Positions 1 through 30,657 of a DNA stretch of 47,675 bases are shown here, piece after piece. The notes beneath the pieces are model-generated. The model did not search any database, was not told the origin of the DNA, and saw nothing but the letters and a program-made list of their open reading frames with translations. Source of the stretch: Thermoguttaceae bacterium (GTDB lineage Bacteria; Planctomycetota; Planctomycetia; Pirellulales; Thermoguttaceae). The DNA lies in the NCBI GenBank assembly GCA_050014815.1, contig JBEKCP010000001.1, positions 1 through 47,675 on the forward strand, written 5' to 3'. How positions within the stretch are numbered: position 1 is the stretch's first letter; each line of letters starts with the position of its first letter. A program made the position numbers and the translations under genes.

Positions 1-1713
1 CATTAATGCCAGTGGCATCGATCCGATGCGAGGCGTTTGTGTGCGCTTCTCGTGGCATCCTGCACACCCCACCGTCTCCCCCGGTTGCACCGTGAAGAAA
101 CTCTGCATCCGTTTGACCGACATGTTGTTCTTATCAAGCGCCACGAAAAACAGACTTCGCATGGCGGGCATTTCTGCATAAGCAGACCCGTCCGCTTCCA
201 CAGGAATCGTGCCCAGAACACGCGAGAGTGTGAAAGTACTCATGTAACTGATCGTATCCATCCAATCGGCGAAATTGATCGGTTTGGGCAAGGATTCGAG
301 GACGAGGAGTTTCTCTATTTCGCCGGGTCGCACACCCTCCATATTCCGACCATGGAGGATATCCGCCAGGTAAATCGTCCCGGTCTCTTTCCCCATATCC
401 ACTCTGTCCGCCAACACCGGTTCACGCGGGCGCGATGTCAATGGACGCGGTTCGTGAACGTCAATTCCATCCGGATTTTCATAGATCATGTCCGCCGCCC
501 CGTTACCGTTAATCAAAAGGATTCGAGTGTTGTCACAAACCAGAAAACAATCTTCGGAAAAAGGATAGGGATCGCGTCCTCCCTCACGGATACGCTTCAC
601 CCTCCTTCTATCATCTGGTCCGGCCTTTTGATCCACGATTGTGACATCTCCCGCGTGTTCTGTCGCCCCATGTCCCCCCGAAAATGAGGCCACCACTTTG
701 TCTGTCCCGGGAATGGGTTTCGCGTCAAGCATGGCGGTGCCAGGGTTCGAGTTTCCATAATAGACCATTTGTCCGCTGCCATCCGGGTTCATGGTCCAGA
801 GGTGATGAAACTTCGTTTGATCGCGATCCACATACTCCCATCGCGTGTAGATCAGCCGGCCGTCAGGCAACATCCAAGGGGTGTTGTCATGCTCCACGTT
901 GGACGAGAGAGGTCGTATATTGCCGCCATTTCCGTCACAGCGATGGACCGTTGCCACCTGAGTGCGCCAACAAGGCACGAATCGCTTGCAACGCGAGGAG
1001 ATGAAGATGATGTTGCCATCCGGCAGGTAGGTGGGTTCAATGTCGTCGAACGGACCGTCCGTCAGTTGCCGCAGTGCGGTTCCGTCGGCATTAATTTCAT
1101 ACAAATTGAAGAACTCACTGCCATCTTTTAGATACGAGAACAGAATCTTTTTTCCGTCGTAATGGACTTGGGGATCGCGAACTCGGCCGGTGACGACCTT
1201 GAGTAACGGGGTCACCTGTTTGGTCCGGAGATTGAGACGGAAGAGGCCTCCGCCTCCTTGAATAGGGACTCTTCCATAATCAATTTCTCCGTTCTTACGA
1301 ATTGTTCCCCCTCTGCTTTCGTGGCCGAAGTTTGCGTACCAATGACCAAACACTGACTTGCGAACGGCAAACACGATATCCTCGACGCCGGCCATTGGCC
1401 CGCGAAGCGCCGCATCCAACAGGGGCACATAGGATGGAGGCGCTACCGGCTTCTTCTGTTTGGCCGGTTGCGATGGTGGCGAGGGTTGTTGAGCAACCGC
1501 TGTTCCAGGAATACTCGACGCAATCAGAAGACAATCGGCGGGCTGGCCGACGAGTGTTTCCCGGTCGGCCGCCAAAACATCCCGAGGTGGTTCCGCCGCC
1601 TGGGTGTTCAGTGTCAGGTTCAGTACGATCAATGCTCCCAAGGCCACTCGCCTTGTCCAGGTATTCATGGTCATCTTCTTGCGGCTATTGTCGCGGTTGG
1701 TGGTGTTGTTCAT
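1..1713 (-). CDS. 3'-truncated (window edge) secreted TolB/PD40-like beta-propeller protein with a CxxCH haem motif; paralogue of 12182..14797
   Basis: It is absent from the ORF track because it has no stop inside the window. Hand translation of the reverse strand is open from 1713 down to 1. N-terminus: MNNTTNRDNSRKKMTMNTWTRRVALGALIVLNLTL (signal-like). Propeller blades: VHYDGKKILFSYLKDGSEFFNLYEINADGTALRQLTDGPFDDIEPTYLPDGNIIFISSRCKRFVPCW and LPDGRLIYTRWEYVDRD, collinear with 12182..14797. C-terminal visible part: MQSFFTVQPGETVGCAGCHEKR, with CAGCH at 52..66. Alternative ATG starts are 1674 and 1668. Confidence 0.8.
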   Translation of the reverse strand, partial: MNNTTNRDNSRKKMTMNTWTRRVALGALIVLNLTLNTQAAEPPRDVLAADRETLVGQPADCLLIASSIPGTAVAQQPSPPSQPAKQKKPVAPPSYVPLLDAALRGPMAGVEDIVFAVRKSVFGHWYANFGHESRGGTIRKNGEIDYGRVPIQGGGGLFRLNLRTKQVTPLLKVVTGRVRDPQVHYDGKKILFSYLKDGSEFFNLYEINADGTALRQLTDGPFDDIEPTYLPDGNIIFISSRCKRFVPCWRTQVATVHRCDGNGGNIRPLSSNVEHDNTPWMLPDGRLIYTRWEYVDRDQTKFHHLWTMNPDGSGQMVYYGNSNPGTAMLDAKPIPGTDKVVASFSGGHGATEHAGDVTIVDQKAGPDDRRRVKRIREGGRDPYPFSEDCFLVCDNTRILLINGNGAADMIYENPDGIDVHEPRPLTSRPREPVLADRVDMGKETGTIYLADILHGRNMEGVRPGEIEKLLVLESLPKPINFADWMDTISYMSTFTLSRVLGTIPVEADGSAYAEMPAMRSLFFVALDKNNMSVKRMQSFFTVQPGETVGCAGCHEKRTQTPRIGSMPLALM

Positions 1714-5209: not shown

Positions 5210-5249
5210 GGGGGTTGTTCTCCTCGTTTCTTGTTGGTGCCCGCACCGC

Positions 5250-5423
5250 CACAAGTTCCACTACGCTCCGTTTCCGACGGCGCTCGAGAAGGCCGGATTG
5301 TTCGGCCCGCGGCTGTTGGCCCTGGTGGGCTGGTTGAAGGGCGTCTGCCACATGTCCTTCACCACGATCCGCAAGTACCTCCGCGACGTAGTGGACGTCC
5401 GCGTCAGCCGCGGCTATCTCGCC
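5250..5423 (+). pseudogene. relic of an IS66-family-like transposase (about 58 codons, no start, no catalytic domain)
   Basis: The tail of + ORF 4629..5495 lies in the 292-nt gap between two minus-strand genes. It reads HKFHYAPFPTALEKAGLFGPRLLALVGWLKGVCHMSFTTIRKYLRDVVDVRVSRGYLA. From memory this resembles the region just upstream of the DDE domain of IS66-type transposases (FGPRL..L...L.G..H.S...I...L.D..G...S.G.L). The similarity ends abruptly at about 5423. The call is from recollection only and no search was done. Confidence 0.4.
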
Positions 5424-7143: not shown

Positions 7144-10100
7144 TCAGTTGCCTCCTGGGCCGGCGTTGCCCAGCACGATCTTCCGGCCGTCGAAGGCGAC
7201 GGTTCGCCGTCCGACGGTCGCGCGGGCGTCCAGGCCCTTGCCCACGGCCTTCACCTCCGGCCCCTCGCCCTTCTGGATCGTCACGACGACGAAGAAGTTG
7301 CCGTCGGTCCCATCGGCGCCGTTGGCGAAAATGCCGGGGGCGGTGAAGGCGGCCTCGCCGCGATTGTACGTCTGCTGGAACTTGAGCGTCCGCACCCCGG
7401 CCTTGATCTGCGGGTCGGCCGGGCCGATAAAGGTCATCTTCATCGTCGCGCCGTCGGGTTTGGCGACCGTCACGGTGTTGCCCTGGACCTTGACGTTCTT
7501 GAAATCGCCCGCCGCGTCGGAGACCTTGTCGGACGACACGTCGGCCAGGTACCACGGCCAGACCTTGCTCTTGCCGCCGGTGATCTTGTCCACCAGAACG
7601 AAGAGGCAGGGGGCGCCACTGGCGCCGCTGTAGTCCACGGCATAGGCCCGCAGGCCCTGGATGCCCGAGTCCTCGAAGGTGGTCTCCTTGCGGACATTGC
7701 CGTACGCCCCGTAGCCGAGTTTGCGGCAATAGATCTCGTTCATGTCGGCCGTCAGCACGCCGGAGCCGTCCTTTTCCATCTTCACGAAACTGGTGAGCGC
7801 CCGGCCGGCGTCGTTGATCTGGTCCTCGGGCAACATGACGACCGGGTCGAAGCACCGCTTGTTGTCCAGCCGGACCGTCGGGTAGCCCATGTTCCATTGA
7901 TGGCCGAGGCCCATAATGCGGAACGTGCCGGCGTTGGGCATGTAGTAGCCCTTCGGGCGGTTCGATTTGAGCCAGACCTGGACGAGGAAATCGTCCTTCC
8001 CCTCCCAGCCGTTGCGGAAACCGTAGTAGCCGAAGTCCGGGGCTTCCCAGGTCAAGGGCATGACGCCCTTGGGCGGCTTGGGCTCCATGTCCAACGGATA
8101 GTTGACGAAAGCCCGCGGCGTAACATACCACTTCGCATTGGAGACGGCCTTGCCCGCGTCCGCCTTGCCCGTGATCCCCAAGGACCGGTTCCAGGCCCAG
8201 AGGACGGCCGGCTTCCATTCTTCCGGCACGATCGGGAAGTTGTAGGCGAAGTAGTCCGGGCCGATCCCGGTGGGGCCGTGGATCTCGTGAGTCACGGGCT
8301 CGCCCTTGTCGGGATAGACGTGCGCGAACACGCGCCGCGGCAGCGCGTGGCTGATGTCGCCCCACGGCGACAGGTCGCGGCCGAAGCAGATGCGATAGGC
8401 CGAGGCGTACATGGCCGGGTGCAGGCCGAGCTCGTACGATTCGGCGCTGGTGACCGACTGGGCCCCGCCGGTACCCACGCCCTCGCGAAACTGGAGAAAC
8501 ATGAGATAGCGGGTCACCTCGAACATGCGCTGGTAGTCCTGGTCCCAGCCGCCGGTGCGCTTCCACTCGGCCATGTCGTGTTGCCAGTCCTTCAGGGCGC
8601 GGGCGTGGCCTTCCTGGAATCGCGCCAGCACGGCCTTCGACGCCTCGAAGTCTTGCTCCGTGGCGCCGTCCAGTTTCGGCTGGAGCGAGTCCCACCGGGT
8701 CCTGACTCGCATGACGACCAGCATCGGATAGAGGCCCTTCTGCAGCTTGACAACCTGCCCGTCGGCCAGCGTGTGGCCGTTCAGGACGAGCTGCTGGCTG
8801 CCGAAGCGGGTGCCGCCCGCACGGACCTTCACCAGGCGCGGCTCGGCGTTGTCCAGCACGGAGTAGAGGCAGAGCGTCAGCGGGGCATCCTTGACCATTT
8901 CCGGTCCCGGCCCGCGCTTGACGTGCCCGGGACTGACCGATTTGCCGACGTTCAGGTAGACGCCGCCGGCGGGAGGCACGAACTCCGGGGCCAGCGGTTT
9001 GAACTCATACTTGACCCCTTCGAAGGTGAAGGCCGTGCCGGCGGTGGGGCGGCATTTCTCGACGCCGCCGGCGTCCCGCAGCGGGTCGGCCGCGATGATG
9101 GCCCGGACGGGCCCCGCGGCCAGCCACTTCGCCGGCGACTTGCCCGGCTCCAACGGCACGACGGGCACGTCCTTGCCCGGCTGGTAGTCGGCGGCCGGCG
9201 GCACCTCGGCGATCGGATCGAGGGCGGCGGGCGGGGCCGGCTCGGGCCCCTTCTCGCCCAGAAACGTCAACGCCCCCAGTGCCACGCCGTAGTAGAGCGA
9301 GCCCGCCTCGCCGTTGCCGTAGGTATATTGTCCCTGCGTGTTGAACATCCCGCGCTGCCACAGGATCCGCTCGGCCCAGGTCATGAGGTACCGCTCGATC
9401 CGCTTCTTGAACGCCTCGTCCCAGGCGTCGTAGCAGAGATCGTAGGCCACGGCCGGATGCTCCCAGACGTAGCCGTAGTGGAAGATGCCGTGGTGGGAGC
9501 CGGGCGTCTTGGCGTCTTTGAAGTTGCAGTTGAGCATCCGCTCGACGATCTCCCGCGCCTGCTCGGCATACTTCTTATCGCCGGTCAGTTGATACTGGAT
9601 GCCCAGGGTGATGGCGTCGTCGGCCTTCAGCGCGGCCTGGCCCAAGGGCGTCTTGGCCTTCTCCCGCAGCGCGGCTAAATCGCTCTTGCGGAAGAGGATC
9701 CTCGGGTGCTCGCCCGGGGCGATCGGCTCGGGATACGTGGTGTACTGTTTCGACGGCGGGAGGATACGGGCCTCGGCGCGGCCCTGGGCCGGCGCGCCGC
9801 GGAATGTACCGCTATAGGTCCCCTCGAATGCCCCGCCGCCTTTGGCCTTCAGGGCGATCTTGTAGTCGGCGGGTCCGCCCGGGACGTAGTTGTCGCCGCT
9901 GATGTTCATCGTGACGGTCAGGTCGATGGCCTGGTCCGAGACGGTCCCTTGTTCGACCAGCCCGAGTTGGAGGGCCGTGTTCAGGTCGCCGGCCACGCCG
10001 AGCACCTGCTCCCAACGCTCGCCCGAGCGGACGAGAAACAGCAGCAGCATGGCCCCGCCCTTGGGCTGTTCGTTTCCTTTCTGCCACGCCGCATCGTAGA

Positions 10101-10230
10101 GCTTCAGTTCGATCTGGGTCGGAGCAGGGGCGGCGGAGACGGCTGTCCCGCACGCCAGGAACCCAAGTCCGATCACCGCCGCCCCGGCGATCACAGCAAC
10201 ACGGCGATGTGTTACGATACTTCTCATCAT
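7144..10230 (-). CDS. secreted heparinase II/III-like (alpha/alpha-toroid + beta-sandwich) protein with an inserted jelly-roll module
   Basis: The track ORF 7144..10305 begins with GTG. I prefer ATGATG at 10230 because it gives MMRSIVTHRRVAVIAGAAVIGLGFLACGTAVSA and has GGGAGAA upstream. The stretches EHPRILFRKSDLAALREKAKTP...YQLTGDKKYAEQAREIVERML...WEHPAVAYDLCYDAW resemble the DUF4962/heparinase N-terminal toroid. The later stretches GFRNGWEGKDDFLVQVW...NAGTFRIMGLGHQWN...LFVLVDKI resemble the Hepar_II_III C-terminal sandwich. The lyase assignment is tentative. Confidence 0.6.
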   Translation of the reverse strand: MMRSIVTHRRVAVIAGAAVIGLGFLACGTAVSAAPAPTQIELKLYDAAWQKGNEQPKGGAMLLLFLVRSGERWEQVLGVAGDLNTALQLGLVEQGTVSDQAIDLTVTMNISGDNYVPGGPADYKIALKAKGGGAFEGTYSGTFRGAPAQGRAEARILPPSKQYTTYPEPIAPGEHPRILFRKSDLAALREKAKTPLGQAALKADDAITLGIQYQLTGDKKYAEQAREIVERMLNCNFKDAKTPGSHHGIFHYGYVWEHPAVAYDLCYDAWDEAFKKRIERYLMTWAERILWQRGMFNTQGQYTYGNGEAGSLYYGVALGALTFLGEKGPEPAPPAALDPIAEVPPAADYQPGKDVPVVPLEPGKSPAKWLAAGPVRAIIAADPLRDAGGVEKCRPTAGTAFTFEGVKYEFKPLAPEFVPPAGGVYLNVGKSVSPGHVKRGPGPEMVKDAPLTLCLYSVLDNAEPRLVKVRAGGTRFGSQQLVLNGHTLADGQVVKLQKGLYPMLVVMRVRTRWDSLQPKLDGATEQDFEASKAVLARFQEGHARALKDWQHDMAEWKRTGGWDQDYQRMFEVTRYLMFLQFREGVGTGGAQSVTSAESYELGLHPAMYASAYRICFGRDLSPWGDISHALPRRVFAHVYPDKGEPVTHEIHGPTGIGPDYFAYNFPIVPEEWKPAVLWAWNRSLGITGKADAGKAVSNAKWYVTPRAFVNYPLDMEPKPPKGVMPLTWEAPDFGYYGFRNGWEGKDDFLVQVWLKSNRPKGYYMPNAGTFRIMGLGHQWNMGYPTVRLDNKRCFDPVVMLPEDQINDAGRALTSFVKMEKDGSGVLTADMNEIYCRKLGYGAYGNVRKETTFEDSGIQGLRAYAVDYSGASGAPCLFVLVDKITGGKSKVWPWYLADVSSDKVSDAAGDFKNVKVQGNTVTVAKPDGATMKMTFIGPADPQIKAGVRTLKFQQTYNRGEAAFTAPGIFANGADGTDGNFFVVVTIQKGEGPEVKAVGKGLDARATVGRRTVAFDGRKIVLGNAGPGGN

Positions 10231-10301
10231 AGTTCTCCCGATGGTTCGTGTTAACTTGCGACACGCTGTTGCCCGCCACTGCGGCGGATGTGCATGGCCC
10301 C

Positions 10302-12056
10302 TCACTTCACCTCAAGCGACTGCCCGTGGATCGCGTGCAGTTTGAACCAGGCTTCGGCCTGCTCGCGGTCGGCGACCCAAAACATCTTCTTACGTTCCTG
10401 CGGCGCGACATCGGCCGCCCTGCGAACGAGGGGAATCGGGTTCCTGAGCCCTTCGGCCAGCAACCTCTTCTCCTCGGCCCGCCGCTTCGCCCGCTGGACC
10501 GCGTACTCCTTCGATTGTTCGACTTGCTTGTCGGTAGCCTCCTCGAACAGCGGACTGACCGCGCCCCAATTCACGCTACTCAGCCGCAGGACGACGAGCA
10601 TGGGATAGAGGCCCTTCTGGAGTTCGACGATCTGCCTGTGTTCGACGGGCACGCCGCCCAGCACGACTTGCAGGCGGCCGGCCACCGAAAATGGGGCGAC
10701 GAGCCTCACCCGCCTGGTTTCCGGCACCTCCAGCACGGTATAGCCCACGACGGTCAGGTCTTGCCCCCATTTTTTGAGCCCGTTCAACGAAATACCACCC
10801 TTGTCCGCGCCCGGCTTCCCGGCGATTGCCTTGAAGGTTGCCTCGTGACCGTCGATCGAGAGATTGTCGCCCGGCTTGGGGCGGAGCGCCTCCCAGCCGC
10901 CAAGGTTGGTCATCGGATCGTTCTTCATGGCGAACTTCACGTCGGTGCGGACCCAGGCCGACGGGCTGCGGCCGGCGACCAGCGGCGCCACCGGCACGCC
11001 CTCCGGCACGCGGTAGTCCCTGGCCGGCGGGATGGCGGCGAAGATGCCCGGGTTCTCAACTTCCTTGCCCACCAGGTATTCGCTCCCCGACGAAAGCAGA
11101 GGATAGTGCGGCTGGCGGAAGAGGTCCTCGACGGCAAACGGATCGATGACGTATCCGGTGGAGTCGTCGACCTGCTTCAACTCGATCGGGCCGTCGGTCG
11201 GATACTTGTCTTTCGGAACGCGGAGATCGAGGGCCTTGTCGATGAACACGGCCAGATAATCCCACACGCGATTGCGCGACATCCGCTGGGCCGGGTTGTC
11301 TTTTCCCGACGTCGATTCCGGGTAATCGCCGTGGCCGATGCCCTGGGCGACGACCTGGTGAGGCAGCCAGTTCTTCTGCGCGCGGTAGTTCAACAGCGAC
11401 GGCCGCACGTGGACGAACCACGTGCCGCCCCACTCCGATTCGCCGTTGGCGTTGACGTGCAGAATCGTCTCGCCCGCGAGCTTCGCCGAATCGGCTGGCG
11501 GCCAGGTGGGCGTCTCGGCATGGTACGAGATGCTGGCGATGGTCCGCTTGGGATGGTTCCACGCCATGACGATGGGGAACTTGCCGCGCGAGGATTTGCC
11601 CAGAACGATCCACGGGGCATGGCGGAACTCGGCAATGCCGGTCTTTTCGGCCAGAAAGTCGAGTATGCTTTGCACGTCGGGTTCGTCGCCGTTGCGGAGG
11701 TAGAGGATGGCCATCTCGTGTTTCGCCGCGACCGCACGGACGGCCGGGTGCATGGCGACCCCCATCGAGTCCGTGTTGTTGGGGACGATGAACAGGGCGC
11801 GGATGTGTTTCGCGCCCGGCGGGACCCAGGCCAGTAGCGGGGCCTTGACCACGCCGTCACGGCCCGGCTGGCCCAGCGGCACCTGGCGGGTCGCAAACCC
11901 GTAGGGCCAGTGCGGCAGTTCGGCCATTGCCGTCAGGTCTTTCGACTCTTGCCCCGGCTGGGGCGGCTCGGCAGCCGCCGCCACCGCGGCGGCGGCAAGG
12001 AGCAAGGACGCAAAGACTGCGGACCGATGCAACCAGCAGATCATGGAGAATGTCAT
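10302..12056 (-). CDS. secreted protein of unknown function; its C-terminal ~190 aa module is shared with the neighbouring 7144..10230 protein
   Basis: The track ORF is 10302..12140. I prefer ATG 12056 (MTFSMICWLHRSAVFASLLLAAAAVAAAA); ATG 12044 (MICWL...) is equally possible and parallels MIRWL of the next gene. The C-terminal stretch ...VPVAPLVAGRSPSAWV...IVELQKGLYPMLVVLRL... aligns with residues in 8551..9192 of the downstream gene. Confidence 0.8.
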   Translation of the reverse strand: MTFSMICWLHRSAVFASLLLAAAAVAAAAEPPQPGQESKDLTAMAELPHWPYGFATRQVPLGQPGRDGVVKAPLLAWVPPGAKHIRALFIVPNNTDSMGVAMHPAVRAVAAKHEMAILYLRNGDEPDVQSILDFLAEKTGIAEFRHAPWIVLGKSSRGKFPIVMAWNHPKRTIASISYHAETPTWPPADSAKLAGETILHVNANGESEWGGTWFVHVRPSLLNYRAQKNWLPHQVVAQGIGHGDYPESTSGKDNPAQRMSRNRVWDYLAVFIDKALDLRVPKDKYPTDGPIELKQVDDSTGYVIDPFAVEDLFRQPHYPLLSSGSEYLVGKEVENPGIFAAIPPARDYRVPEGVPVAPLVAGRSPSAWVRTDVKFAMKNDPMTNLGGWEALRPKPGDNLSIDGHEATFKAIAGKPGADKGGISLNGLKKWGQDLTVVGYTVLEVPETRRVRLVAPFSVAGRLQVVLGGVPVEHRQIVELQKGLYPMLVVLRLSSVNWGAVSPLFEEATDKQVEQSKEYAVQRAKRRAEEKRLLAEGLRNPIPLVRRAADVAPQERKKMFWVADREQAEAWFKLHAIHGQSLEVK

Positions 12057-12181
12057 GGCGATGTGACCCTGGGGTGGTAATTCGGGCAGGTGGGCAGGCA
12101 GGCAGGCGACCGGCCGCTGTGGAAGCCGGCGATCAAGCACCCATTATAACCTGCGCACGAAGCAATTGCAATAGTCGCACC

Positions 12182-14797
12182 TTACTCCAACGTCGGCCGG
12201 ACGGTCTCGCCGCGGAGTTGGGCCTGGCCGCCTTCCTTCTCGTAGACGCCGTAGAAGATCGAGCAGCAGTCGAGCCACAGCGCGATGCGGTGCCGCTCCT
12301 CATCGGTGAGTTTCACGTCGTAGTGGCCCTTCTCCAACAGCGGCAGGAGCTTCGATGCCCGGGCGCCGAAACGGCCAGGCGTGGTCCGATACGCATTGCC
12401 GTAGCTGTAGAAGCCGTACTTCGCCGCCAGGCTGTTGTAGGAGGCGTACCAGTGGCGGGCGATGGGCTCGCGGCCCAGGTTGGGCGCCTTGTCGCGGTGC
12501 TGGTCGTGACATGCCGCACAGTGCTTGTCCAGCACCGGCTGCACGAGCCGGGGATAGCTGAACGGGTTGGAGCCGTCCACGTCCGGTTGGGGCTGCGAGG
12601 GGCCGCGTCGCAGCGCCAGCGGCGTACTGGACAGGACCGCCGGGGCGCGGTGCCCCGGCTCATGGCAGCCCTGGCAAAGCAACTGCTCGCCCGGTTGCAC
12701 GCAGGCCGCCGACCGCATCGACTGCACGGCCAGCCCCTGCTCGTCGATCGCCTGGAAAAGCACTTCCTTCTGGGCCGGCACGACGAAATGGGCGCTGCCA
12801 TCCTCTTCGACCGGCACGGTGCCTAGCACGCTGCGGGCCAGCACGACCGAATCGCCGGCGGTCGGCTCGCGAAGGCCGATCTCGTGCGGCGGGCTGCCGG
12901 AAGGCACGGTCATGGGCAGGACCTGGAGGATCCTGAGCGACTTGATCTTCGTTCCCTCCGGCCAGGGCTTGTGGCTGTTGTAGACGTTGACGACCGCCAT
13001 GCCGCCCTCGGCCGGCTTGCCGTCCACGGAAACCACCCGCTCGCTACCCGGCAGACGCTCGATGCGCTCGGCCGCCAGCGCGGGCAGCGGCGACGGCGGG
13101 GCGGGCGGCTGCGGCCGCGGCCGCAACGGCATGGGACTCAGGCACGAGACGGCCGGGTCGCGGTAGATCAGCTCTTTGTTGCCGAAACTGTCCACCAGGC
13201 AGATGCCGTAGTTGAAGCGGCCGCCGGTGTTGCCTTCCATGCCCTCGCGGCCGCGAGCCAGATTGGCCAGGCCGTCATAGACGCACAGGTAATAGTCCTC
13301 GCTGAGCGGCCATGCGGTGCTGTAGACCTGCCGGCCGCCTTGCGACTCGGGGAATCCCACCTCCGGCGTCAGCCGCTTGACCGGCGCCATGGCATCGTCG
13401 TCGGCCACGTGCGGGTCGAGGACCACGAGCGACCCGAAGGCCTGACCGTGGTGCGGGGCGGCGGTGGCCACGTACTTGTGCGAGCCGGGGATGGCCAGGA
13501 TGTGCATTTCCATGTCGGGCCGGAGGTTCCGGGGGGCGAAGTTGCCGTGTACCGCCCGGCTGTCCCGCCCGTCGAGCGTCGTGATCCAAGGCAAATGGGC
13601 CGTGCAGCCGTGGCGATCGACGTAGTCCCATCGCGTGTAGATGATCCGGCCGTCGTGCGTGACGCTGGGGTGCCATTCGTTGGTCTCGTGGACGCTCAGC
13701 GGCCGGATGTCGGCGCCGTCGGCCGCCATGTCGTAAAGGGTGTAGGTGGGGCACGCCCGGCCGCATCTCAGGTAACCGCCGCGCCGCTCGGTGATGAAGG
13801 CGATCCGCCCGTTGGGCAGCCAGCAGGGGTGCAAGTCGTTCCACGTGCCGTCGGTCAACTGTTCCAGGCCGGTGCCGTCGGCGTTCATCTTGAAGATGTG
13901 GTACGCGCGGCCTTCATGCCAGTGGCCGCGGCTTGGATCTGTGTGCATGACTTGGCCCGTGGGCCCCCGGCACTCGACGTAGGCGAAGAGGATCGTCCGG
14001 CCGTCGTAGGAAAGACTGGGTGAAAGGAAGCTGCCCCCTTCGAGTTTCTCGCCCTTGAGCCGGCCGCGCTCGACCACGCTGCCGGCCGTTACGTTGCGCA
14101 GTCGGGGGTTGGGGCCAAACGGGTTGGCCAGCACGTAGAGTCCGCCGCCCGGCACGCCGTTGATGCCGTAGTACTGGTCGCACATGTGGTTGAATCGGGC
14201 CGGGTGCCGCTTGCAGAAGAGGATCTGGTCGAAGTCGAGGAGCGGATTGCACAAGGCAATCTTCCGCCGGAGACGGCAAAGGTCGCCGAACAACTCGAAG
14301 CGGGCCTCGGCGTCCTCGACCTTGACCGAGTCGGCCCGCGATTGCAACGGTTCCAACTGCCGGGCCAGCGGGGCCAGCGCCGCGGCGGCCGGCCCGCGCC
14401 GCAGGTCTGCCAGCAATGCCGCCGTCCGCCGCAGGACCACGTCGGCCGGGTCGCGGTCGCCCGCCAGGATCAGGGCCTCCGGGCGAAACGTCTGCGCGGC
14501 CCGGGCGGCGATCGTCCCGCGATTGCGGAGGTCCTCTCCCAGTGCGAAGAACTCGTTCTCGATTTCATGGAGCGGGTCGGCCGGGTCGGCGTGTCGGCGG
14601 GGGATGAGGACGGCCGGCGGCGCGGCTCGTTTCGGCGCCCGGCTGCCCGCCGCGGCCGCCTTCCTCTTGGGGGTCGGGTCGTCCTTTCCTGAGGTCGATT
14701 CCTGCCTCGACTGGGGCTGCTCCGCAACCGCCGCCATTGGGGCCGCTGCAAGGAGCAAGGATGCGAAGAGCGCGGACTGACTCAACCAGCGGATCAT
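12182..14797 (-). CDS. secreted TolB/PD40-like beta-propeller protein with two CxxCH c-type haem motifs (hydrazine-synthase-alpha-like domain order)
   Basis: 871 aa with an ATG start and signal MIRWLSQSALFASLLLAAAPMAAVA. Propeller blades: SLSYDGRTILFAY, MNADGTGLEQLTDGTWNDLHPCWLPNGRIAFITER, MAADGADIRPLSVHETNEWHPSVTHDGRIIYTRWDYVDRHG. The middle region FVVPAQKEVLFQAIDEQGLAVQSMRSAACVQPGEQLLCQGCHEPG carries CQGCH at 12662..12676. The C-terminal region LVQPVLDKHCAACHDQH carries CAACH at 12506..12520 and looks like a planctomycete cytochrome domain. Confidence 0.85.
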   Translation of the reverse strand: MIRWLSQSALFASLLLAAAPMAAVAEQPQSRQESTSGKDDPTPKRKAAAAGSRAPKRAAPPAVLIPRRHADPADPLHEIENEFFALGEDLRNRGTIAARAAQTFRPEALILAGDRDPADVVLRRTAALLADLRRGPAAAALAPLARQLEPLQSRADSVKVEDAEARFELFGDLCRLRRKIALCNPLLDFDQILFCKRHPARFNHMCDQYYGINGVPGGGLYVLANPFGPNPRLRNVTAGSVVERGRLKGEKLEGGSFLSPSLSYDGRTILFAYVECRGPTGQVMHTDPSRGHWHEGRAYHIFKMNADGTGLEQLTDGTWNDLHPCWLPNGRIAFITERRGGYLRCGRACPTYTLYDMAADGADIRPLSVHETNEWHPSVTHDGRIIYTRWDYVDRHGCTAHLPWITTLDGRDSRAVHGNFAPRNLRPDMEMHILAIPGSHKYVATAAPHHGQAFGSLVVLDPHVADDDAMAPVKRLTPEVGFPESQGGRQVYSTAWPLSEDYYLCVYDGLANLARGREGMEGNTGGRFNYGICLVDSFGNKELIYRDPAVSCLSPMPLRPRPQPPAPPSPLPALAAERIERLPGSERVVSVDGKPAEGGMAVVNVYNSHKPWPEGTKIKSLRILQVLPMTVPSGSPPHEIGLREPTAGDSVVLARSVLGTVPVEEDGSAHFVVPAQKEVLFQAIDEQGLAVQSMRSAACVQPGEQLLCQGCHEPGHRAPAVLSSTPLALRRGPSQPQPDVDGSNPFSYPRLVQPVLDKHCAACHDQHRDKAPNLGREPIARHWYASYNSLAAKYGFYSYGNAYRTTPGRFGARASKLLPLLEKGHYDVKLTDEERHRIALWLDCCSIFYGVYEKEGGQAQLRGETVRPTLE

Positions 14798-14840
14798 GGG
14801 GTCTGAAACCTCAGATTTCGGATGTCAACTGACGGAAAAT

Positions 14841-16988
14841 CTACTTGATTTCCACCTCGTACCACAGGGTCTTGTGCTCCGGCCCGAGCCGCAGCAGGGC
14901 CTTGCCGTTGTGCTGGACAGCCGGCCATGGATCACGGCGGACACCCGCGGGATCGAGGGGCCAGCAGCGGACCCGATCGGCGGCGACGGGCAACACGATC
15001 TCAACCCCAACGCCTTCGCATAGGACGGGCGGCTGGCCCCACCGATCGCCCAGAGTGACTTTATCCCCGTCGAGGTATTCGAGCTTCGCGCCACGGTTCT
15101 GCATCCAGCCCGTGGCGGCCACGAGCATCCGCCCCGGCTGGTCGAAGCCCGCGCCGTCGACGCATACCAGCGAGACCGTGGCCCAGTCGAGCCGAGTCCG
15201 GCCCGGGGTGAGAACCACATTGCCCAGGCAAAAGCTCCGCCCCTGGATGAAGCCGGTGAAGAGTTTCGTGCGCGGGCTATCCACGGTGAGATAGCCGCCG
15301 CCTTTGCGCGAGGCGTCCCAACGCATCTGGCCGGTGTCGGAAACGAGCGGGGCCCCGGCGTCGGGCGGGGCCGGCGCGGCCTTGTCGGGCGCGCGGGCAC
15401 GGTCTTCGCCCAACTCCATGGCTATCGCGTGGACCGCCGACCATCGCGCGTCCATGCCCGCCATGGTGGCTTGCACTTCCCAGGGATTGAAGGTCTGGCG
15501 CAGCTTGCGGCGCTCCGCCTCGCGCGAGACCGGAGTCAACAGGGTGGTCCGGGCGGCGGTCACGTCGCCGCGAACGAACATCGCCGCGCAGGCCGGCAAG
15601 TGGACCAGCTTCGCCGGATCGCCCTTGAAGTCGAAGAAGCCAACGATCCGCGACGACTCGTACTCGGAACTGCCGCTATAGGAGAAAGTGTAAATGCCGT
15701 CCCAGCCCTGCAGGGCGCCGAAAGCCGCGGCCATCGGAAAGCCCTCGGCGGCATAGACGTTGGGCGCCGGGTGGTTGTACTCGCTTACCGTGAAAGGCAG
15801 CCCGGCCACCCGCTTGGCAGCCAGCCGGCCGAGGATACCGGGCGGGGTGTCGGCCAGCGCGGTGTTGCCCACGGTCCAGTGGCCGGCGTCCCAATCGCGG
15901 CCGGGGAATGCCGGATGGTGCCAATAGGCGTGGGCGTCGAGGTAATCGAGTCGGGCCTGAATATGGACGGGGCTCCAGGAGACCTGCGTGCCGGACACCG
16001 GCGGGCGGACCCGCAGTTCTTCCTTGAGGAAGCGGTGCATGCCCAGCCAATAGGCCCGCTCGGTGTCCCAGAGGAAATCGGCCCAATCGGCGCGGACCGG
16101 CGGAGTTGGGGCGTCCTTGGCGCGGAGCGGCGCGATTGCCGCTTCTTGCCATAATCGCGAGTCGGCGGCCGCATCCTCGCTTCGGTTCCATGCCTCGCGC
16201 CAACGCTCGGTGCCGCCGTACTTCTGCCGCAGCCACAGGTTCCAGAGCTTGCGAAACGTGGTGGAATAAGGTTCCGGCAGGCGGTCCAATCGGCCGTAAC
16301 GCCACTCCTCGAACAGCGCGTTCTCGTTGTTGATCTCGACAAAGGCCACCGCCGGCTCGTCGGCATAGGCTGCGCCGGTATAAGGATTGACGTGCCGCAG
16401 CAGGTCGCGGGCGAACTTCTTCTGCAACTCGATCATGCGGGGCTCGAAGTTGTCGAGCCCCTTATCGTACTTCGGCCGCTCGGCCCGGCCCGGAAAACCG
16501 TCGGCCTCGTCCAACCAGCGCGAGATGTGCAGGTTCAGGTTCGTATAGACGCCGTGGAGCTTGAGTTGATGGACGAGGTAGTCGAGCCGATCGAGTTGCT
16601 TGGGATCGATCGCGAGGTGGCCGGGGCCGTCGCCCCAAATCTCGCGGCGGTCCATGTGGTGCATGCGGACGCAATTGAATCCCAGGCGGGCCAGGCCGGC
16701 CGCCAGTCGCTGGGCCTGTTCGTGGCTGGGGAAACAGCCCGCCGCGCAGAGGTTCGTCCCCCAGAAGCGAATTGGTTTCATTTCGCCGGAGGCCGCCCTG
16801 ATCGCCAGTCGGCCGCCGATCGCCTGCACGAAGCCGTCTTTGCCCGCCGGGCGGGCGATCCATGCGGAGACATCGCCCGCGCCTCCCGCCGCCGGCAACG
16901 GCATGGAGAAGGGAAACATCTCGTCCTGGGCAACGGTCTCCGGGCTGCCGGCCGTCAGAACAATCGCCGTGAGGAGAAGCGGATTCAT
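14841..16988 (-). CDS. secreted clan GH-A (GH5-like) glycoside hydrolase
   Basis: 715 aa, ATG start, N-terminus MNPLLLTAIVLTAGSPETVAQ. The stretches RFWGTNLC...LGFNCVRMHHMD...LDYLVHQLKLHGVYTNLNLH...VAFVEINNENALFEEW carry the R..HH.D and NE(N) acid/base-type motifs of (beta/alpha)8 GH5-like enzymes. The family number is not verified. Confidence 0.7.
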   Translation of the reverse strand: MNPLLLTAIVLTAGSPETVAQDEMFPFSMPLPAAGGAGDVSAWIARPAGKDGFVQAIGGRLAIRAASGEMKPIRFWGTNLCAAGCFPSHEQAQRLAAGLARLGFNCVRMHHMDRREIWGDGPGHLAIDPKQLDRLDYLVHQLKLHGVYTNLNLHISRWLDEADGFPGRAERPKYDKGLDNFEPRMIELQKKFARDLLRHVNPYTGAAYADEPAVAFVEINNENALFEEWRYGRLDRLPEPYSTTFRKLWNLWLRQKYGGTERWREAWNRSEDAAADSRLWQEAAIAPLRAKDAPTPPVRADWADFLWDTERAYWLGMHRFLKEELRVRPPVSGTQVSWSPVHIQARLDYLDAHAYWHHPAFPGRDWDAGHWTVGNTALADTPPGILGRLAAKRVAGLPFTVSEYNHPAPNVYAAEGFPMAAAFGALQGWDGIYTFSYSGSSEYESSRIVGFFDFKGDPAKLVHLPACAAMFVRGDVTAARTTLLTPVSREAERRKLRQTFNPWEVQATMAGMDARWSAVHAIAMELGEDRARAPDKAAPAPPDAGAPLVSDTGQMRWDASRKGGGYLTVDSPRTKLFTGFIQGRSFCLGNVVLTPGRTRLDWATVSLVCVDGAGFDQPGRMLVAATGWMQNRGAKLEYLDGDKVTLGDRWGQPPVLCEGVGVEIVLPVAADRVRCWPLDPAGVRRDPWPAVQHNGKALLRLGPEHKTLWYEVEIK

Positions 16989-20164: not shown

Positions 20165-21544
20165 TTACTCCGCCTGCTCCTGCAACTCAACGATCAGGCA
20201 CGTCCCTGGGTCGCCGGGCTGTTTGGCGGCAATCAGGAAGCCGCCTCCCACCGCGCTCATACTGAAGCCGCCGCGGTGCCTCGGGCGTAGCCGAGCGGCC
20301 GCCTCGAGCGTCTTGGTGTCGATGATCGCCAAGGTGTTTCCCACCGGCGAACCGACGACCGCGTATCGGCCGTCGCTGCTGAAACTCAGCCCGATGCAGT
20401 TGCCCCAGCCCGGCCGGCCGTCGCGGTCTTCGCGCTCCTCGGTATCCAGCGGCTTGCCGCTTGCGTCGAGGATGTTCAGCCCGCCGCGGCGTCCCCGCTC
20501 AATGCGGTAGATGTGGCGACCGTCCGGCCCCGCGAACACCCGGGTGTACCAACCCAGATGGCCCTCTCGCCCGAGCGCGGGCCGGAAGCTCGGCGCGGCC
20601 GACAACACGAAGAGCTCCGGCACGCCCAGCATCCGCACGGTCCAGGTGCGGGTCGGATCGTCCGGGCGCGGCGGGATCCGCACCTCGAACGGCGGGCCGA
20701 CCGGCCGCACGGTCCATGTCTTGGTCGAAAGCAGCATGGGGACTTCGCGGTTTGGGCCGCTACGCAGGTCGACGAGCAGATTGCCGGCTTTATCTCCCTC
20801 GGCGACGTATCCGTACAGCCGGTCAACATTGTTGGCGTCCGCTTGGATTTCAAGTTTCTCGGGATCGGCGAGCGGAAGCAGGATCCGCCATTGCCGGTTG
20901 GTCCTTGGTTCGGGCGGACCGACCATCAGGCACAGCGTTTTGCCATCCCCGATCAACGCGCCACGCCACTGGTGGCGGCCCCCCTCCGAGCGGAACGTCC
21001 GCTCGATCACCTTCCGCTCCCCGAGGTCGAACCAGGCATAGGACGGCCCGTAGCCGTCGGCAGGAAAGGCGTACCGGCCGTCGGGCGAGAAAACGACGTG
21101 TTGCGCGAAGAGCGTCTCGCTCTCGACCACCCGTTGGCCGCTCCGCAGATCGAGGATTGCCGTTCCGCCGCGGCCCGGCTTCGACTGGCGGTCCGGCACG
21201 GCGGCCCATTTCCGGTCGTCGGACACGGTCAACACGCCTTCCGGGCAGGCGAAACTCTCGTCGAGAGCGGGCTTGAGCGGATCGATGATCCAAGCTCGAC
21301 GTTGCGACTTGCTCCAGAGACACCATCTCTTGAAATCCGCGGTCCGACCGATGCCATCGATCCGCAGGATCGCGAGCTTGTAGTCGAGGCCGCCCAGCCG
21401 GAAGGTCGCGCCATCCTCGATGGTCGGGGGCGGCTCGGCCGCAACCGCGCGGCCTTCGGTTTGACTTCCCAACAGGACGCAGCACAGACTTGTTGCGACC
21501 AGTCCCGTTCCCCGCTTGCCGAACACCACGCTTCGCCACGTCAT
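20165..21544 (-). CDS. secreted beta-propeller-like protein of unknown function
   Basis: The track ORF is 20165..21580. I prefer ATG 21544 because it gives MTWRSVVFGKRGTGLVATSLCCVLLGS and has GGGGAGGA 6 nt upstream. Repeated SxDGRYA/FSPDGRYAF-type strands are present (VVFSPDGRYAFPADG, LSFSSDGRYAVVGS). Confidence 0.75.
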   Translation of the reverse strand: MTWRSVVFGKRGTGLVATSLCCVLLGSQTEGRAVAAEPPPTIEDGATFRLGGLDYKLAILRIDGIGRTADFKRWCLWSKSQRRAWIIDPLKPALDESFACPEGVLTVSDDRKWAAVPDRQSKPGRGGTAILDLRSGQRVVESETLFAQHVVFSPDGRYAFPADGYGPSYAWFDLGERKVIERTFRSEGGRHQWRGALIGDGKTLCLMVGPPEPRTNRQWRILLPLADPEKLEIQADANNVDRLYGYVAEGDKAGNLLVDLRSGPNREVPMLLSTKTWTVRPVGPPFEVRIPPRPDDPTRTWTVRMLGVPELFVLSAAPSFRPALGREGHLGWYTRVFAGPDGRHIYRIERGRRGGLNILDASGKPLDTEEREDRDGRPGWGNCIGLSFSSDGRYAVVGSPVGNTLAIIDTKTLEAAARLRPRHRGGFSMSAVGGGFLIAAKQPGDPGTCLIVELQEQAE

Positions 21545-21593
21545 GACAAGTCCTCCCCGCGAGATTGAGACACGGTTCATTTAGCGCCGGAAG

Positions 21594-22619
21594 TTACCGC
21601 TCCGGCGGGCGCTCCGCATGTGGATCGTTACCCTCGGGCGGCACCGGCGGCTTTTCGGCCCACACCGCTTCGAGCGGCGCAAAGTCCTTCCCGGCGCGCT
21701 GCCGGGCCCGGGCGAACAGCCGCGAAATCGTCGCGTCGGCAGACGCATGGAAGTGACGATCGTGGCCCGGTTTGCGATACTGGAACTGAATCTCGCAAGC
21801 CCCTTGGAGGGACGGGGCCAGCGCCGAGAGGCCGCGATAGGCTTCGGCGAAGCCGAACGTGCCGACCGGCAGCTTCGCGGTCCGATCGTCGCGCGCGACG
21901 TGACCCTGGGTGATCCGGGCACTGCCATCCGGCATGATGCTCAGGACCCATTGGTTCGGCGCATGCACGCTGATTGAGCCCAGATCTTCGGGCGGGGCGG
22001 GCGTGGGCGGAGCTGGGGCTGGCTCGCTCGACCCCTTCAGCGCCGCGATCGCCGTTTCGCAGGCGTGGCGCAGCCCGGGATGGACCATCTGTGGATGCTT
22101 TGCGCGATCCGCGTCGCGCAACCGCTCGAGCAAAGGCACATCATCGGCTGACCCCACCTTGCCCAAGATCTGGACCGCATAGACCCGCAGCGTCGCCTCC
22201 GGGGGCGCAACACCCGACGTGTTCCCCTTTGGATCGATGGCCCGCGGCTCCTCTCGCTCCAGCAACTTCCGCAGCTTTTCGGCGGCTAGACGGCGACCAT
22301 CGCCGGAAAGCCGCGCCGACTTCGCGTAACGGTCGAGTTGAAAGAGGGCCTCGTGCGCGGCCCCGTAGTTGAGCGGGTCGTCGGATAGCAAGAACTTGTC
22401 GAACGACTCCACCCATGTTGCCTTGGAACCCGTCGCGCCGCCCGGCCCGAGGTTGCTGCCCGGCCCATCTGCTTTCGGCAACTCGATCGCCCTCCCAGAC
22501 TGAGGGGACTCCGCAAACGTGTCCTCTCGGGTCTGCGGGCCGGCCGCGCCGATGATCGAAGCCAGCGCGGCCACCGCGCACAGCCCGACCGCAAGAATAG
22601 CCCGTCGATGCCGCAACAT
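21594..22619 (-). CDS. secreted protein of unknown function with a HEAT-like segment
   Basis: The track ORF starts with GTG at 22637. AAGGAGG at 22628..22634 sits 8 nt from ATG 22619 (MLRHRRAILAVGLCAVAALASIIGA) and only 2 nt from ATG 22625. The stretch YAVQILGKVGSADDVPLLERLRDAD is HEAT/PBS-lyase-like. Confidence 0.7.
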   Translation of the reverse strand: MLRHRRAILAVGLCAVAALASIIGAAGPQTREDTFAESPQSGRAIELPKADGPGSNLGPGGATGSKATWVESFDKFLLSDDPLNYGAAHEALFQLDRYAKSARLSGDGRRLAAEKLRKLLEREEPRAIDPKGNTSGVAPPEATLRVYAVQILGKVGSADDVPLLERLRDADRAKHPQMVHPGLRHACETAIAALKGSSEPAPAPPTPAPPEDLGSISVHAPNQWVLSIMPDGSARITQGHVARDDRTAKLPVGTFGFAEAYRGLSALAPSLQGACEIQFQYRKPGHDRHFHASADATISRLFARARQRAGKDFAPLEAVWAEKPPVPPEGNDPHAERPPER

Positions 22620-30500: not shown

Positions 30501-30585
30501 GGCGGTCGGCCGCCGCGCCGACGGCTGCCGCGGCAAGCAGCCCCAGCAGCGATCCCACGGCCAATGCACGCAGATTACGAAACAT
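27568..30585 (-). CDS. secreted protein with two tandem FAD-dependent-oxidoreductase (FAD_oxidored-type) modules and C-terminal HEAT-like repeats
   Basis: The track ORF is 27568..30651. I prefer ATG 30585 (MFRNLRALAVGSLLGLLAAAAVGAAA). There are two dinucleotide-binding motifs: DVVVVGGTSGGVAAACAAASRGATV (GGTSGG at 30382..30399) and DVVVIGGGTGGAPAGIGAGRQGAKT (GGGTGG at 29293..29310). Each is followed by its own module end: WIAGGCADVSRAAA..ALGQRVG and GIAVTGLAVSAQRDA...QGYAIGVAAA. The C-terminal stretch HVLGMLGDASGAEVLAKAV / ALGRTRHPGALRPLL / ALEALGDKAAAPALA is HEAT-like. Confidence 0.8.
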   Translation of the reverse strand: MFRNLRALAVGSLLGLLAAAAVGAAADRPMPSPNPNSPIPCASLLESARELPLAYDVDVVVVGGTSGGVAAACAAASRGATVFLAAPRPYVGEDLAGTMRLWLDEGETPDSPLAKRLFDGGSPATPLAIKTALDAALLQAKVTFLTGCLPTDVLRDADGNPAGIVMANRSGRQAVRAKVIVDATERAVVARMAGAKFSPYPSGPQTFTRVVISAQPIDADGVKVRKLKGPARAKANPREKPAKAAAVAFDYYECAMELPMRDGSWRSFAEAEQAARDKTWNARLGEASDSLFQVPPDAIQGAVSQPGDFAGAAAVDLGALRPAGVPRVWIAGGCADVSRAAAAKLVRAANAIALGQRVGLQAADEAKKLPAPGGVRLAGAAGAARSAVEVRESLAGLRPALRPAARVPAEARALPVLGEYDVVVIGGGTGGAPAGIGAGRQGAKTLLVEYLPMLGGVGTYGLIGKYWFGNRVGFTAEHDAGVRGMGALVHVNAKAEWWRVENRRAGTEIWFGCLGCGALVEGGKLRGAVVATPFGRGAVLAKVVIDATGGADIAAAAGAECVTSGAQEIAVQGTGLPPRNLGASYTNTDYLFVDETDAVDLWQHFLYARAKYPSAFDVSQLIDSRERRRIVGDIEISPMDIVARRTFPDTITIAKSNFDTHGYTVHPLFLLRAPHKEALLAQVPLRCLLPKGLEGIAVTGLAVSAQRDALPVIRMQADVQNQGYAIGVAAATAAKEGTTLRRVDVRALQRHLVEKGLLPAEVLGQKDSFPLPAAAVASAVAQLANNYNELEIVLAHLDQSIPLLRNALKSADGEAKLIYAHVLGMLGDASGAEVLAKAVAGATWDRGWNFKGMGQFGASISPLDSKIIALGRTRHPGALRPLLDKAAELDAGQQLSHHRAVALALEALGDKAAAPALAAVLAKEGIGGHAILLPPPGERPETSRTDGDAARSAALRELMLARALYRCGDHGGLGEKTLRQFAQDVRGHFARHAAAVIEERTRTTN

Positions 30586-30609
30586 GGTTCTGAGTCTCCC
30601 TGAACATAA

Positions 30610-30657
30610 GTGCTGGGGCGGGATCGTGTTCCAGGCGAACGGCAGCGGCATGTTGAG
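30610..30657 (-). pseudogene. 48-nt relic of an AlgJ/AlgX-like gene 3' region in the leader of the FAD gene
   Basis: It translates as LNMPLPFAWNTIPPQH, compared with INMPLAFGSNTIPPEH of the CDS at 38611..39612 (coordinates 38707..38754). By hand alignment 40 of 48 nt are identical. An in-frame TGA lies just upstream and no further ORF follows. Confidence 0.4.

Follow-up and report, generated by a model that had tools for sequence, protein, structure and literature searches.

A probable HzsA-related dihaem β-propeller protein, distinct from hydrazine synthase, in a Thermoguttaceae bacterium

We analyzed a stretch of 47,675 nucleotides (nt) from a Thermoguttaceae bacterium of the Planctomycetota (assembly GCA_050014815.1, contig JBEKCP010000001.1, positions 1 to 47,675), referred to below as the window, and concentrated on one open reading frame (ORF) on its reverse strand, whose HzsA-related product has 871 amino acids (aa) and a size of roughly 90 kDa. 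Very probably, this product is a true HzsA-related protein with two haems rather than a hydrazine synthase (HZS). A preliminary description, made from the sequence alone, had reported here a secreted 871-aa protein with two CxxCH motifs; the ORF indeed begins with an ATG codon and a Sec-type signal, and both motifs can be read directly in the DNA. The structure was predicted by AlphaFold from 49 diverse representatives of the family (model 2; mean predicted local distance difference test score (pLDDT) 85.3, predicted TM-score 0.87), and this model replaced one built on a shallow alignment (model 1; pLDDT 65.8). The parts of model 2 with low confidence are the signal and linker (aa 1-58) and the loops at aa 280-282, 516-526, 575-586 and 644-649. 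The features of the gene are listed below.

12182..14797, reverse strand: complete ORF of 871 aa with ATG start, HzsA-related dihaem c-type cytochrome with a β-propeller (ORF list, Pfam, Foldseek)
14723..14797, reverse strand: Sec-type signal peptide, aa 1-25, MIRWLSQSALFASLLLAAAPMAAVA followed by EQ (hydrophobic core; cleavage site between AVA and EQ read by eye)
14576..14722, reverse strand: low-complexity Pro/Ala/Lys linker, aa 26-74 (pLDDT below 50 for aa 18-58)
14255..14575, reverse strand: N-terminal bundle of five helices, aa 75-181 (model 2, pLDDT 94-98)
13118..14230, reverse strand: PD40/TolB-type β-propeller, about aa 190-560 (model 2, TolB Foldseek matches, conservation)
12659..13009, reverse strand: β-sandwich middle domain, aa 597-713 (sandwich at aa 597-708 in model 2), running straight into CQGCH (Pfam HZS_alpha; aligned to the middle domain of 5c2v_A)
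12716..12718, reverse strand: Met694, candidate sixth ligand or pocket residue of haem 1 (invariant in two alignments, 49 of 49 and 32 of 32)
12662..12676, reverse strand: haem-binding motif 1, CQGCH, aa 708-712; the DNA reads TGCCAGGGCTGCCAT (12676..12662)
12185..12619, reverse strand: C-terminal all-helical cytochrome-c-like domain, aa 727-871, with CAACH within a helix (model 2, helical at aa 727-861)
12506..12520, reverse strand: haem-binding motif 2, CAACH, aa 760-764; the DNA reads TGTGCGGCATGTCAC (12520..12506)

The strongest domain assignment is the Pfam family HZS_alpha (PF18582), which covers aa 617-713 with 85.3 bits against a cut-off of 26.6 (E 4.3e-24, model positions 2-98 of 98), as the preliminary description had anticipated; its other suggested profile, PSCyt1 (PF07635), gave no match at E<=0.1 in the Pfam scan of the protein. 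Two further cytochrome families, Paired_CXXCH_1 (E 0.0066) and Cytochrome_CBB3 (E 0.023), produced weak matches below threshold. Among proteins of known structure, the only relative found by sequence is 5c2v_A, the alpha subunit of hydrazine synthase, with an E-value of 5e-9 in pairwise comparison and of 5.6e-27 when a profile of the 49 relatives was used; the aligned parts comprise two propeller segments, the linker together with the middle domain, and the second haem motif. The same structure is the top match of model 2 in a Foldseek search of the PDB (E 1.8e-28, TM-scores 0.56/0.62, 828 columns, identity 18%), followed by TolB structures that match over about 400 columns in the propeller alone (E 6e-12). 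The Pfam match, the alignment to 5c2v_A and the predicted fold thus bear out the earlier proposal of a non-anammox, HZS-alpha-like dihaem propeller, and they indicate that the three-domain order of hydrazine synthase alpha is present in the 871-aa protein.

The propeller of model 2 consists of some 22 strands at aa 190-560, which fits six four-stranded blades. The claim that these blades are of the TolB/PD40 type is supported by the TolB matches of Foldseek and by PD40 matches in 23 of the 49 relatives, but in the protein itself PD40 stays below threshold (18.3 vs 20.9 bits). TolB identity was rejected, given that the TolB equivalog TIGR02800 scores 34.5 bits, far under its cut-off of 343, and that the structural match is restricted to the propeller. 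The C-terminal domain resembles a generic cytochrome c of class I: Cytochrome_CBB3 or Cytochrom_C is matched in this domain by 9 of the 49 relatives, and the family profile finds the class-I cytochrome c 4rlr_A in the PDB (E 0.0027).

A chance origin of the two haem motifs was rejected. The composition of the protein predicts 0.015 CxxCH motifs, and two or more occurred at a frequency of 5e-5 among 20,000 shuffles. Conservation was examined in the 49 representatives, which are 38-62% identical to the 871-aa protein. In haem motif 1, residues C708, G710, C711 and H712 are invariant (49/49), and in haem motif 2, residues C760, C763 and H764 are kept in 48 of the 49 (98%); exactly two CxxCH motifs are present in 240 of 270 homologues. 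Met694 is kept in a paralogue encoded at 1..1713 of the window as well, while hydrazine synthase has Ala at this position. The propeller contributes a set of His and Cys residues conserved at 78-94% (H204, C325, C345, H370, H401, H417, H449, H450) and a cluster of Arg and acidic residues conserved at 90% or more (R338, R339, R344, R389, R395, R414, D391, D394, D409). For haem 2, the best candidate for a distal ligand is His825 (76% conserved). As a whole, the pattern is as expected for an enzyme whose active site would lie between the propeller face and haem 1, in the geometry that we infer.

The public gene call of this gene begins at Met21 and yields 851 aa. A direct repeat of 105 nt with 81% identity (14695-14799 vs 11942-12046) joins the 5' ends of the HzsA-related ORF and of the neighbouring 612-aa ORF, and since these 5' nucleotides recur at the head of the neighbour, the ATG at 14797 is favored over Met21 as the start, and the product is taken to be exported. 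The repeat spans the signal peptide and the start of the linker, and the encoded peptides are nearly identical (MICWLHRSAVFASLLLAAAAVAAAAEPPQ vs MIRWLSQSALFASLLLAAAPMAAVAEQPQ). These observations suggest a duplication of the leader or gene conversion, and they suggest that the true start of the 612-aa ORF is near 12046 and not at GTG 12140. Alignments of homologues to the 871-aa protein begin only at about aa 74-78, and the linker (aa 26-74) is located where most close homologues have an F5/8-type-C or NPCBM module. More speculatively, the exchange of leaders may have displaced a carbohydrate-binding module of this kind.

The protein shares common ancestry and the overall fold with hydrazine synthase alpha, and it is devoid of the features required for hydrazine formation. 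The CxxCH histidine of HZS, His587, is diverted to a zinc ion that it shares with Cys303, and the ligand of haem alpha-I is Tyr591 (PMC12607021, PMC12758564). Ungapped alignment places His716 at the position of Tyr591 in a variable column (Trp in 17, His in 9 and Arg in 6 of the 49 relatives), and no conserved Tyr equivalent to Tyr591 was found among these relatives; haem 1 is therefore probably His-ligated in the canonical way. No alignment with the 871-aa protein was obtained for the Cys303 region of HZS. Taken as a true alpha subunit of hydrazine synthase, the protein would mark an unrecognised nitrogen metabolism of the anammox type, and the domain order and both haem motifs, which it has in common with HZS alpha, would fit. 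However, the NCBIfam equivalog for HzsA (NF052339) scores 44 bits against a cut-off of 800, with a match confined to aa 635-718; the identity to 5c2v_A is low and the Tyr ligand is missing. Furthermore, the window has no hzsB/C genes, no multihaem ORF of the hydroxylamine oxidoreductase or hydrazine dehydrogenase (HAO/HDH) type, and in any frame no ORF with a CxxCH motif besides the two HzsA-like genes; a tblastn search with the beta-gamma-like modules described below likewise found nothing in any frame of the window. The family occurs in at least 593 genomes of heterotrophs, and published work on related homologues concludes likewise (PMC12758564, PMC10732223). We regard this possibility as effectively refuted and scarcely credible. 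An ORF at 20165..21580, encoding a Cytochrom_D1-like propeller without a haem motif, was considered as a beta-like partner and rejected, as comparisons with the propellers that are fused to family members and with the PDB gave no significant similarity.

The family to which the protein belongs is large and widespread. Exhaustive searching of 1.84 billion cluster representatives (50% identity) with phmmer returned 21,551 clusters at E<=1e-3, 5,871 at E<=1e-10 and 1,506 at E<=1e-30. A word-indexed search gave more than 5,269 matches, of which the best 120 clusters align at 63-71% identity to more than 90% of the 871-aa protein; these derive from metagenome-assembled genomes of Planctomycetota, and several are named 'HzsA-related protein' or 'discoidin domain-containing protein' by NCBI. 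The former name is carried, for instance, by clusters P0049, P0053, P0081, P0088 and P0109, with 65-67% identity over 91-94% of the protein. Among GTDB contigs with one genome per species, relatives were found in at least 593 stretches, mostly from bacteria of the Planctomycetota-Verrucomicrobiota-Chlamydiota (PVC) group. The best 80 of these relatives show 59-68% identity, and their hosts include Pirellulales, Thermoguttaceae, Sedimentisphaerales, Phycisphaerae, Verrucomicrobiota, Kiritimatiellae, Lentisphaerae/Victivallales, Hydrogenedentota, Sumerlaeota and bins labelled Armatimonadetes or Anaerolineales. More than one family member is present in 16 of 83 orthologue loci.

As a kind, the finding is already known: the family has been named by NCBI and discussed in two papers (PMC10732223, PMC12758564). 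Suarez et al. 2023 (PMC10732223) described 'hzs-like genes' outside anammox bacteria and put forward the idea of a wide family of enzymes that use alternative substrates. Hagglund et al. 2025 (PMC12758564) reported homologues with similar predicted folds that lack key residues, none of them with confirmed function, and observed co-location of alpha and beta-gamma genes in clades I-IV. Our literature search turned up no functional study and nothing that connects glycan degradation with hydrazine-synthase-like proteins; neither 'carbohydrate' nor 'discoidin' appears in PMC12758564, and the papers that name 'hydrazine synthase' and 'glycoside hydrolase' together are, judged by title and abstract, metagenomic or multi-omic surveys of communities.

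The architecture of close relatives suggests a link to carbohydrates. Among the best 120 clusters, F5_F8_type_C is present in 71 and NPCBM in 20 (together 91/120), and neither in the remaining 29. The modules are N-terminal (aa 8-130 in P0002, aa 129-211 in P0017) and occupy the place of the linker in the window protein. More distant relatives possess Laminin_G_3, CBM_4_9, PA14, PKD or fn3 domains, and 4 of the 49 representatives end in a sorting tail of the type IX secretion system. The fused modules are binding modules of the galactose, N-acetylgalactosamine (GalNAc) or fucose type, and genes for glycoside hydrolases (GH) of families GH29, GH95, GH2, GH39 and GH116 and for peptidase M60 near single orthologues fit this glycan chemistry. 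These fusions are better evidence for a glycan link than the neighbours of the gene in the window. Because none of the papers searched pairs hydrazine synthase with fucoidan, sulfated polysaccharides, Kiritimatiellota, Lentisphaerae or carbohydrate-binding modules, we consider the module link a small new element.

A minority of the subfamily has retained the partnership of alpha and beta-gamma subunits known from hydrazine synthase. Two natural fusions, 44-52% identical to the 871-aa protein, contain both parts: P0170 (1429 aa) consists of a propeller, a CCP_MauG dihaem part and the HzsA-like part, and P0141 (2267 aa) has the opposite order, with the HzsA-like part followed by PKD/PA14 domains, a propeller and CCP_MauG dihaem; the partner modules of the two fusions share 41% identity. 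A partner is found within 10 kb in 3 of the 83 orthologue loci. In L044 (5341-14603) a beta-gamma-like gene is located directly downstream of the orthologue and is followed by GFO/IDH/MocA, DUF6807 and enolase-superfamily genes; in L057 (2665-12367, forward strand) an operon combines a NIR_SIR-type sulfite/nitrite reductase, a beta-gamma-like gene, a second HzsA-like gene and the orthologue; and in L081 the beta-gamma-like gene (20712-22484) is 8 kb away from the orthologue. In addition, L003 has a CCP_MauG gene at a distance of two genes from its orthologue. The surviving pairing supports a redox role, and it also keeps alive the alternative of a partner encoded elsewhere in the genome. As a separate observation, cluster P0208 (1774 aa) is a tandem of two complete HzsA-like units with four CxxCH motifs.

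The gene is surrounded in the window by a truncated paralogue and by co-directional ORFs, as listed below.

1..1713, reverse strand: paralogue truncated at the edge of the window, 571 aa present, with a propeller and an HZS_alpha middle domain ending in CAGCH, without the helical bundle
7144..12140, reverse strand: two downstream co-directional ORFs, of 612 aa (10302-12140) and 1053 aa (7144-10305)
14841..16988, reverse strand: upstream co-directional ORF of 715 aa, weakly GH5/GH42-like, with an 'EINNEN' segment of the clan GH-A type

The paralogue, correctly recognized in the preliminary description, matches HZS_alpha with an E-value of 2e-18 and is 31% identical to the main protein over 519 aa (E 1e-56). 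Orthologues of the paralogue type (55-59% identity) adjoin the main type in loci L024 and L051. The first 4000 positions of the window, which hold the paralogue and most of a GH123 gene (1757-5254), have a GC content of 0.54, compared with 0.61-0.70 elsewhere, and this low-GC block may have been acquired separately. Of the other neighbours named earlier, the upstream ORF is indeed separated from the HzsA-related ORF by 43 nt, but its GH5-like label rests on matches of 20 bits to GH5/GH42, under the Pfam cut-offs, and on GH5 mannanases in the PDB at E 1e-3. The 'heparinase-like pair' downstream has a similar standing: the 1053-aa ORF matches DUF4962 below threshold (21 bits vs a cut-off of 28.7) and HepB at E 0.005, and the 612-aa ORF has no family match, but both do have a module of about 190 aa in common (36% identity, E 5e-26, aa 367-544 vs 365-557). 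This module has no match in Pfam, NCBIfam or the PDB, and the 612-aa and 1053-aa proteins have no homologue in the 83 related loci.

The window contains further genes of glycan and sugar metabolism: in addition to GH123, these are two GFO/IDH/MocA genes, a xylose-isomerase-like TIM barrel, an aldo-keto reductase (AKR), an FAD oxidoreductase, propellers of the pyrroloquinoline quinone (PQQ) type and AlgX/MBOAT acetylation genes. Such richness is typical of these genomes. Four successive AlgX-like SGNH proteins are encoded on the reverse strand (38611-39675, 39672-41171, 41235-43280 and 42308-44044, the last two overlapping as called), adjoined by an MBOAT acyltransferase (44046-45521, reverse strand), so that 38611-45521 looks like a polysaccharide O-acetylation cluster. 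A 1027-aa FAD_oxidored protein is encoded near the two GFO/IDH/MocA genes (one with a signal of the twin-arginine translocation (TAT) type), the TIM barrel and the AKR gene (27568-30651 and 32791-35774, both on the reverse strand), a set that presumably resembles pathways of oxidative (3-keto) glycoside processing.

We then asked about conservation of the gene context in the family. Eighteen window proteins were compared by tblastn with 85 fetched loci, results being given for 83 orthologue loci, and the genes of each locus were called with a codon-usage log-odds caller trained on its own HzsA gene. A conserved operon was rejected, as tblastn revealed no conserved neighbour and the best neighbour cluster in an all-against-all clustering of ORFs (GFO/IDH/MocA) was found in only 10 loci. 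The immediate flanks of family members comprise 106 proteins with 148 Pfam families, among them short-chain dehydrogenases/reductases (SDR, 6), GFO/IDH/MocA (6), 3-keto-disaccharide hydrolases (4), GH95 (3) and GH2 (2); the distal control of 133 genes, five or more genes away, has SDR (4), GFO/IDH/MocA (4) and xylose-isomerase-like TIM barrels (2). Neighbours in individual orthologue loci include GH39, GH116, GH2, GH29, GH95, peptidase M60, 3-keto-disaccharide hydrolase and GFO/IDH/MocA. The only tightly conserved neighbour seen is a short-chain dehydrogenase directly downstream of the orthologue in L011, L015, L016, L019 and L005 (about 12400-13300), which is 81-84% identical between these loci and restricted to a lineage (loci of the Sedimentisphaerales/Phycisphaerae type). 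The earlier argument from gene context thus does not generalise: none of the neighbours it named stands beside orthologues in the 83 loci, and the excess of sugar genes is only marginal.

We propose, with moderate confidence, that the protein is a Sec-exported, stand-alone periplasmic haem-c oxidoreductase acting on a glycan-derived substrate; the glycan origin of this substrate is the more tentative part of the proposal. Judging from the export signal and from the homology of both motifs to haem sites seen in the 5C2V crystal structure, haem c would be covalently attached at both motifs, and we infer a scheme in which haem 1 is the catalytic one. The substrate would sit above the canonically His-ligated haem 1, in a pocket lined by the conserved His, Cys and Arg residues of the propeller face, and haem 2 would provide the electron port to an external redox partner. 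The substrate would most probably be a glycan of the galactose, fucose or GalNAc type or a derivative, because the closest relatives target themselves via N-terminal F5/8-type-C or NPCBM modules. The 59-68% identity across phyla and the many invariant charged, His and Cys residues of the propeller suggest enzyme-like conservation, and the fusion or adjacency to a propeller and a dihaem part of the cytochrome c peroxidase (CCP)/MauG type (P0141, P0170; L044, L057, L081) shows that the family works within haem redox systems. A reaction dependent on O2 is argued against by the occurrence of close orthologues in strictly anaerobic lineages (Sedimentisphaerales, Anaerohalosphaeraceae and Kiritimatiellae). 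Hence the earlier suggestion of carbohydrate redox chemistry rather than nitrogen chemistry is plausible on account of the module fusions, but not by way of the neighbour context given for it.

Several points weigh against this proposal. The window protein itself has no carbohydrate-binding module, and its neighbours in the window were not found next to orthologues in any of the 83 other loci. The enrichment of sugar genes beside orthologues is not significant (GFO/IDH/MocA 6/106 vs 4/133 in the distal control), and adjacency is weak evidence, as glycan genes abound in PVC genomes in general. Haem alpha-II of HZS is too distant from the other haems for efficient transfer, and haem alpha-I performs a net non-redox condensation (PMC12607021); a relay from haem 2 to haem 1 could therefore be wrong. 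Met694 could make haem 1 six-coordinate and a pure electron carrier, with catalysis elsewhere. Finally, the two papers on the family hold no experimental datum for any non-anammox member (PMC12758564, PMC10732223).

Two other explanations have to be weighed against a stand-alone oxidoreductase. The protein might be the alpha-like subunit of a two-site complex resembling HZS, with its propeller and CCP/MauG dihaem partner supplied by a gene at another place in the genome; H2O2, NO, hydroxylamine or a similarly small and reactive molecule would be processed and passed between two haem sites, and the modules would only localise the enzyme. The natural fusions P0170 and P0141, the beta-gamma-like genes near orthologues in L044, L057 and L081, the CCP_MauG gene in L003 and the co-location in clades I-IV (PMC12758564) all speak for such a complex. 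On the other hand, the window has neither a beta-gamma-like sequence nor another ORF with CxxCH, its propeller at 20165..21580 is unrelated to the fused ones, only 3 of 83 loci have a partner within 10 kb, and the widespread fusions to carbohydrate-binding modules are hard to square with a small-molecule enzyme, so that we rate this explanation as rather unlikely, though worth keeping in view. We give still less credence to the view that the protein is a non-catalytic dihaem electron carrier or docking protein, in which haem 1 is six-coordinate with His/Met ligation through Met694, the propeller binds a partner or a glycan in the manner of TolB, and electrons pass from periplasmic sugar dehydrogenases (GFO/IDH/MocA, FAD or PQQ-type) to the respiratory chain. 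The residue Met694 is invariant, also in the paralogue, but is replaced by Ala in catalytic HZS alpha, and the C-terminal domain has the character of a generic cytochrome c; no other neighbour recurs as often as GFO/IDH/MocA (10-17 of 83 loci), and the window itself contains two such genes (one with a TAT signal), the FAD oxidoreductase and the PQQ-type propellers. Nevertheless, ligation by Met694 is putative, the propeller face bears some 20 near-invariant residues (His, Cys, Arg, Asp and Trp) at 59-68% identity across phyla, which fits an active site better than a docking surface, and the many paralogues per genome or locus (more than one in 16/83 loci) are as in substrate-diversified enzymes.

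The protein is an ordinary member of a family already recognised by databases and by two recent papers, not the discovery of a new kind, and the present locus adds no decisive clue to the function of the family. The family matters, as it comprises 21,551 clusters at 50% identity and is about 60-68% identical across several phyla of polysaccharide degraders, and as no other relative is known for the enzyme that forms hydrazine in the nitrogen cycle. What we add is modest: the tie to carbohydrate-binding modules and the rarely retained pairing with a CCP-like beta-gamma module. If borne out, this addition would open a testable way back to what hydrazine synthase originally did, and perhaps lead to a haem-dependent glycan-processing enzyme of a new type. 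In a wider and rather doubtful extension, the stand-alone, module-bearing HzsA-related proteins could represent a large unrecognised class of haem-c carbohydrate-active redox enzymes in PVC and allied glycan degraders, an 'auxiliary activity' operating also in anaerobes and the stock from which the alpha subunit of anammox HZS was recruited.

Comparison with known systems places the protein as follows. HzsA of 'Ca. Kuenenia stuttgartiensis' (kuste2861, PDB 5C2V/5C2W chain A), by far the best fold match, is likewise exported and has a six-bladed propeller of the PD40 type, a middle β-sandwich ending in CxxCH and a C-terminal helical domain with a second CxxCH; its haem alpha-I motif CSGCH aligns with CQGCH and its haem alpha-II motif CAMCH with CAACH. 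Unlike HzsA, the present protein has an additional N-terminal helical bundle and the invariant Met694, its gene has no adjacent beta and gamma subunits, and its context is heterotrophic glycan and sugar metabolism, not anammox. TolB/PD40 proteins and the PL22 oligogalacturonate lyase (3PE7) have the same type of propeller (Foldseek E 6e-12 for TolB and 1.3e-6 for 3pe7), and PL22 illustrates that such a propeller can hold a His-ligated metal site acting on sugars; in contrast to the present protein, they have no haem domains, and only about 400 of its 871 residues align with them.

Cytochrome-linked sugar dehydrogenases offer a parallel in logic. The fungal PQQ-dependent pyranose dehydrogenase combines an AA12 six-bladed propeller with an AA8 cytochrome and CBM1, and bacterial quinohaemoprotein dehydrogenases are likewise cytochrome-linked. 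By analogy, these secreted or periplasmic enzymes and the family studied here would combine a carbohydrate-binding module, a propeller scaffold and a cytochrome as electron outlet, whereas no sequence or specific fold relationship connects them; the cytochromes of the present protein are predicted to be c-type and covalently bound, one of them directly beneath the propeller, and there is no evidence for PQQ in it. The protein also belongs to the same superfamily as the homologues of Hagglund et al. and Suarez et al.; it has two haem motifs, as in clade I, and the key catalytic residues of HZS are not conserved. Those homologues were chosen by their co-location with beta-gamma-like genes and discussed in terms of nitrogen chemistry and evolution, whereas the present subfamily is mostly stand-alone (80 of 83 loci) and usually carries fused carbohydrate-binding modules.

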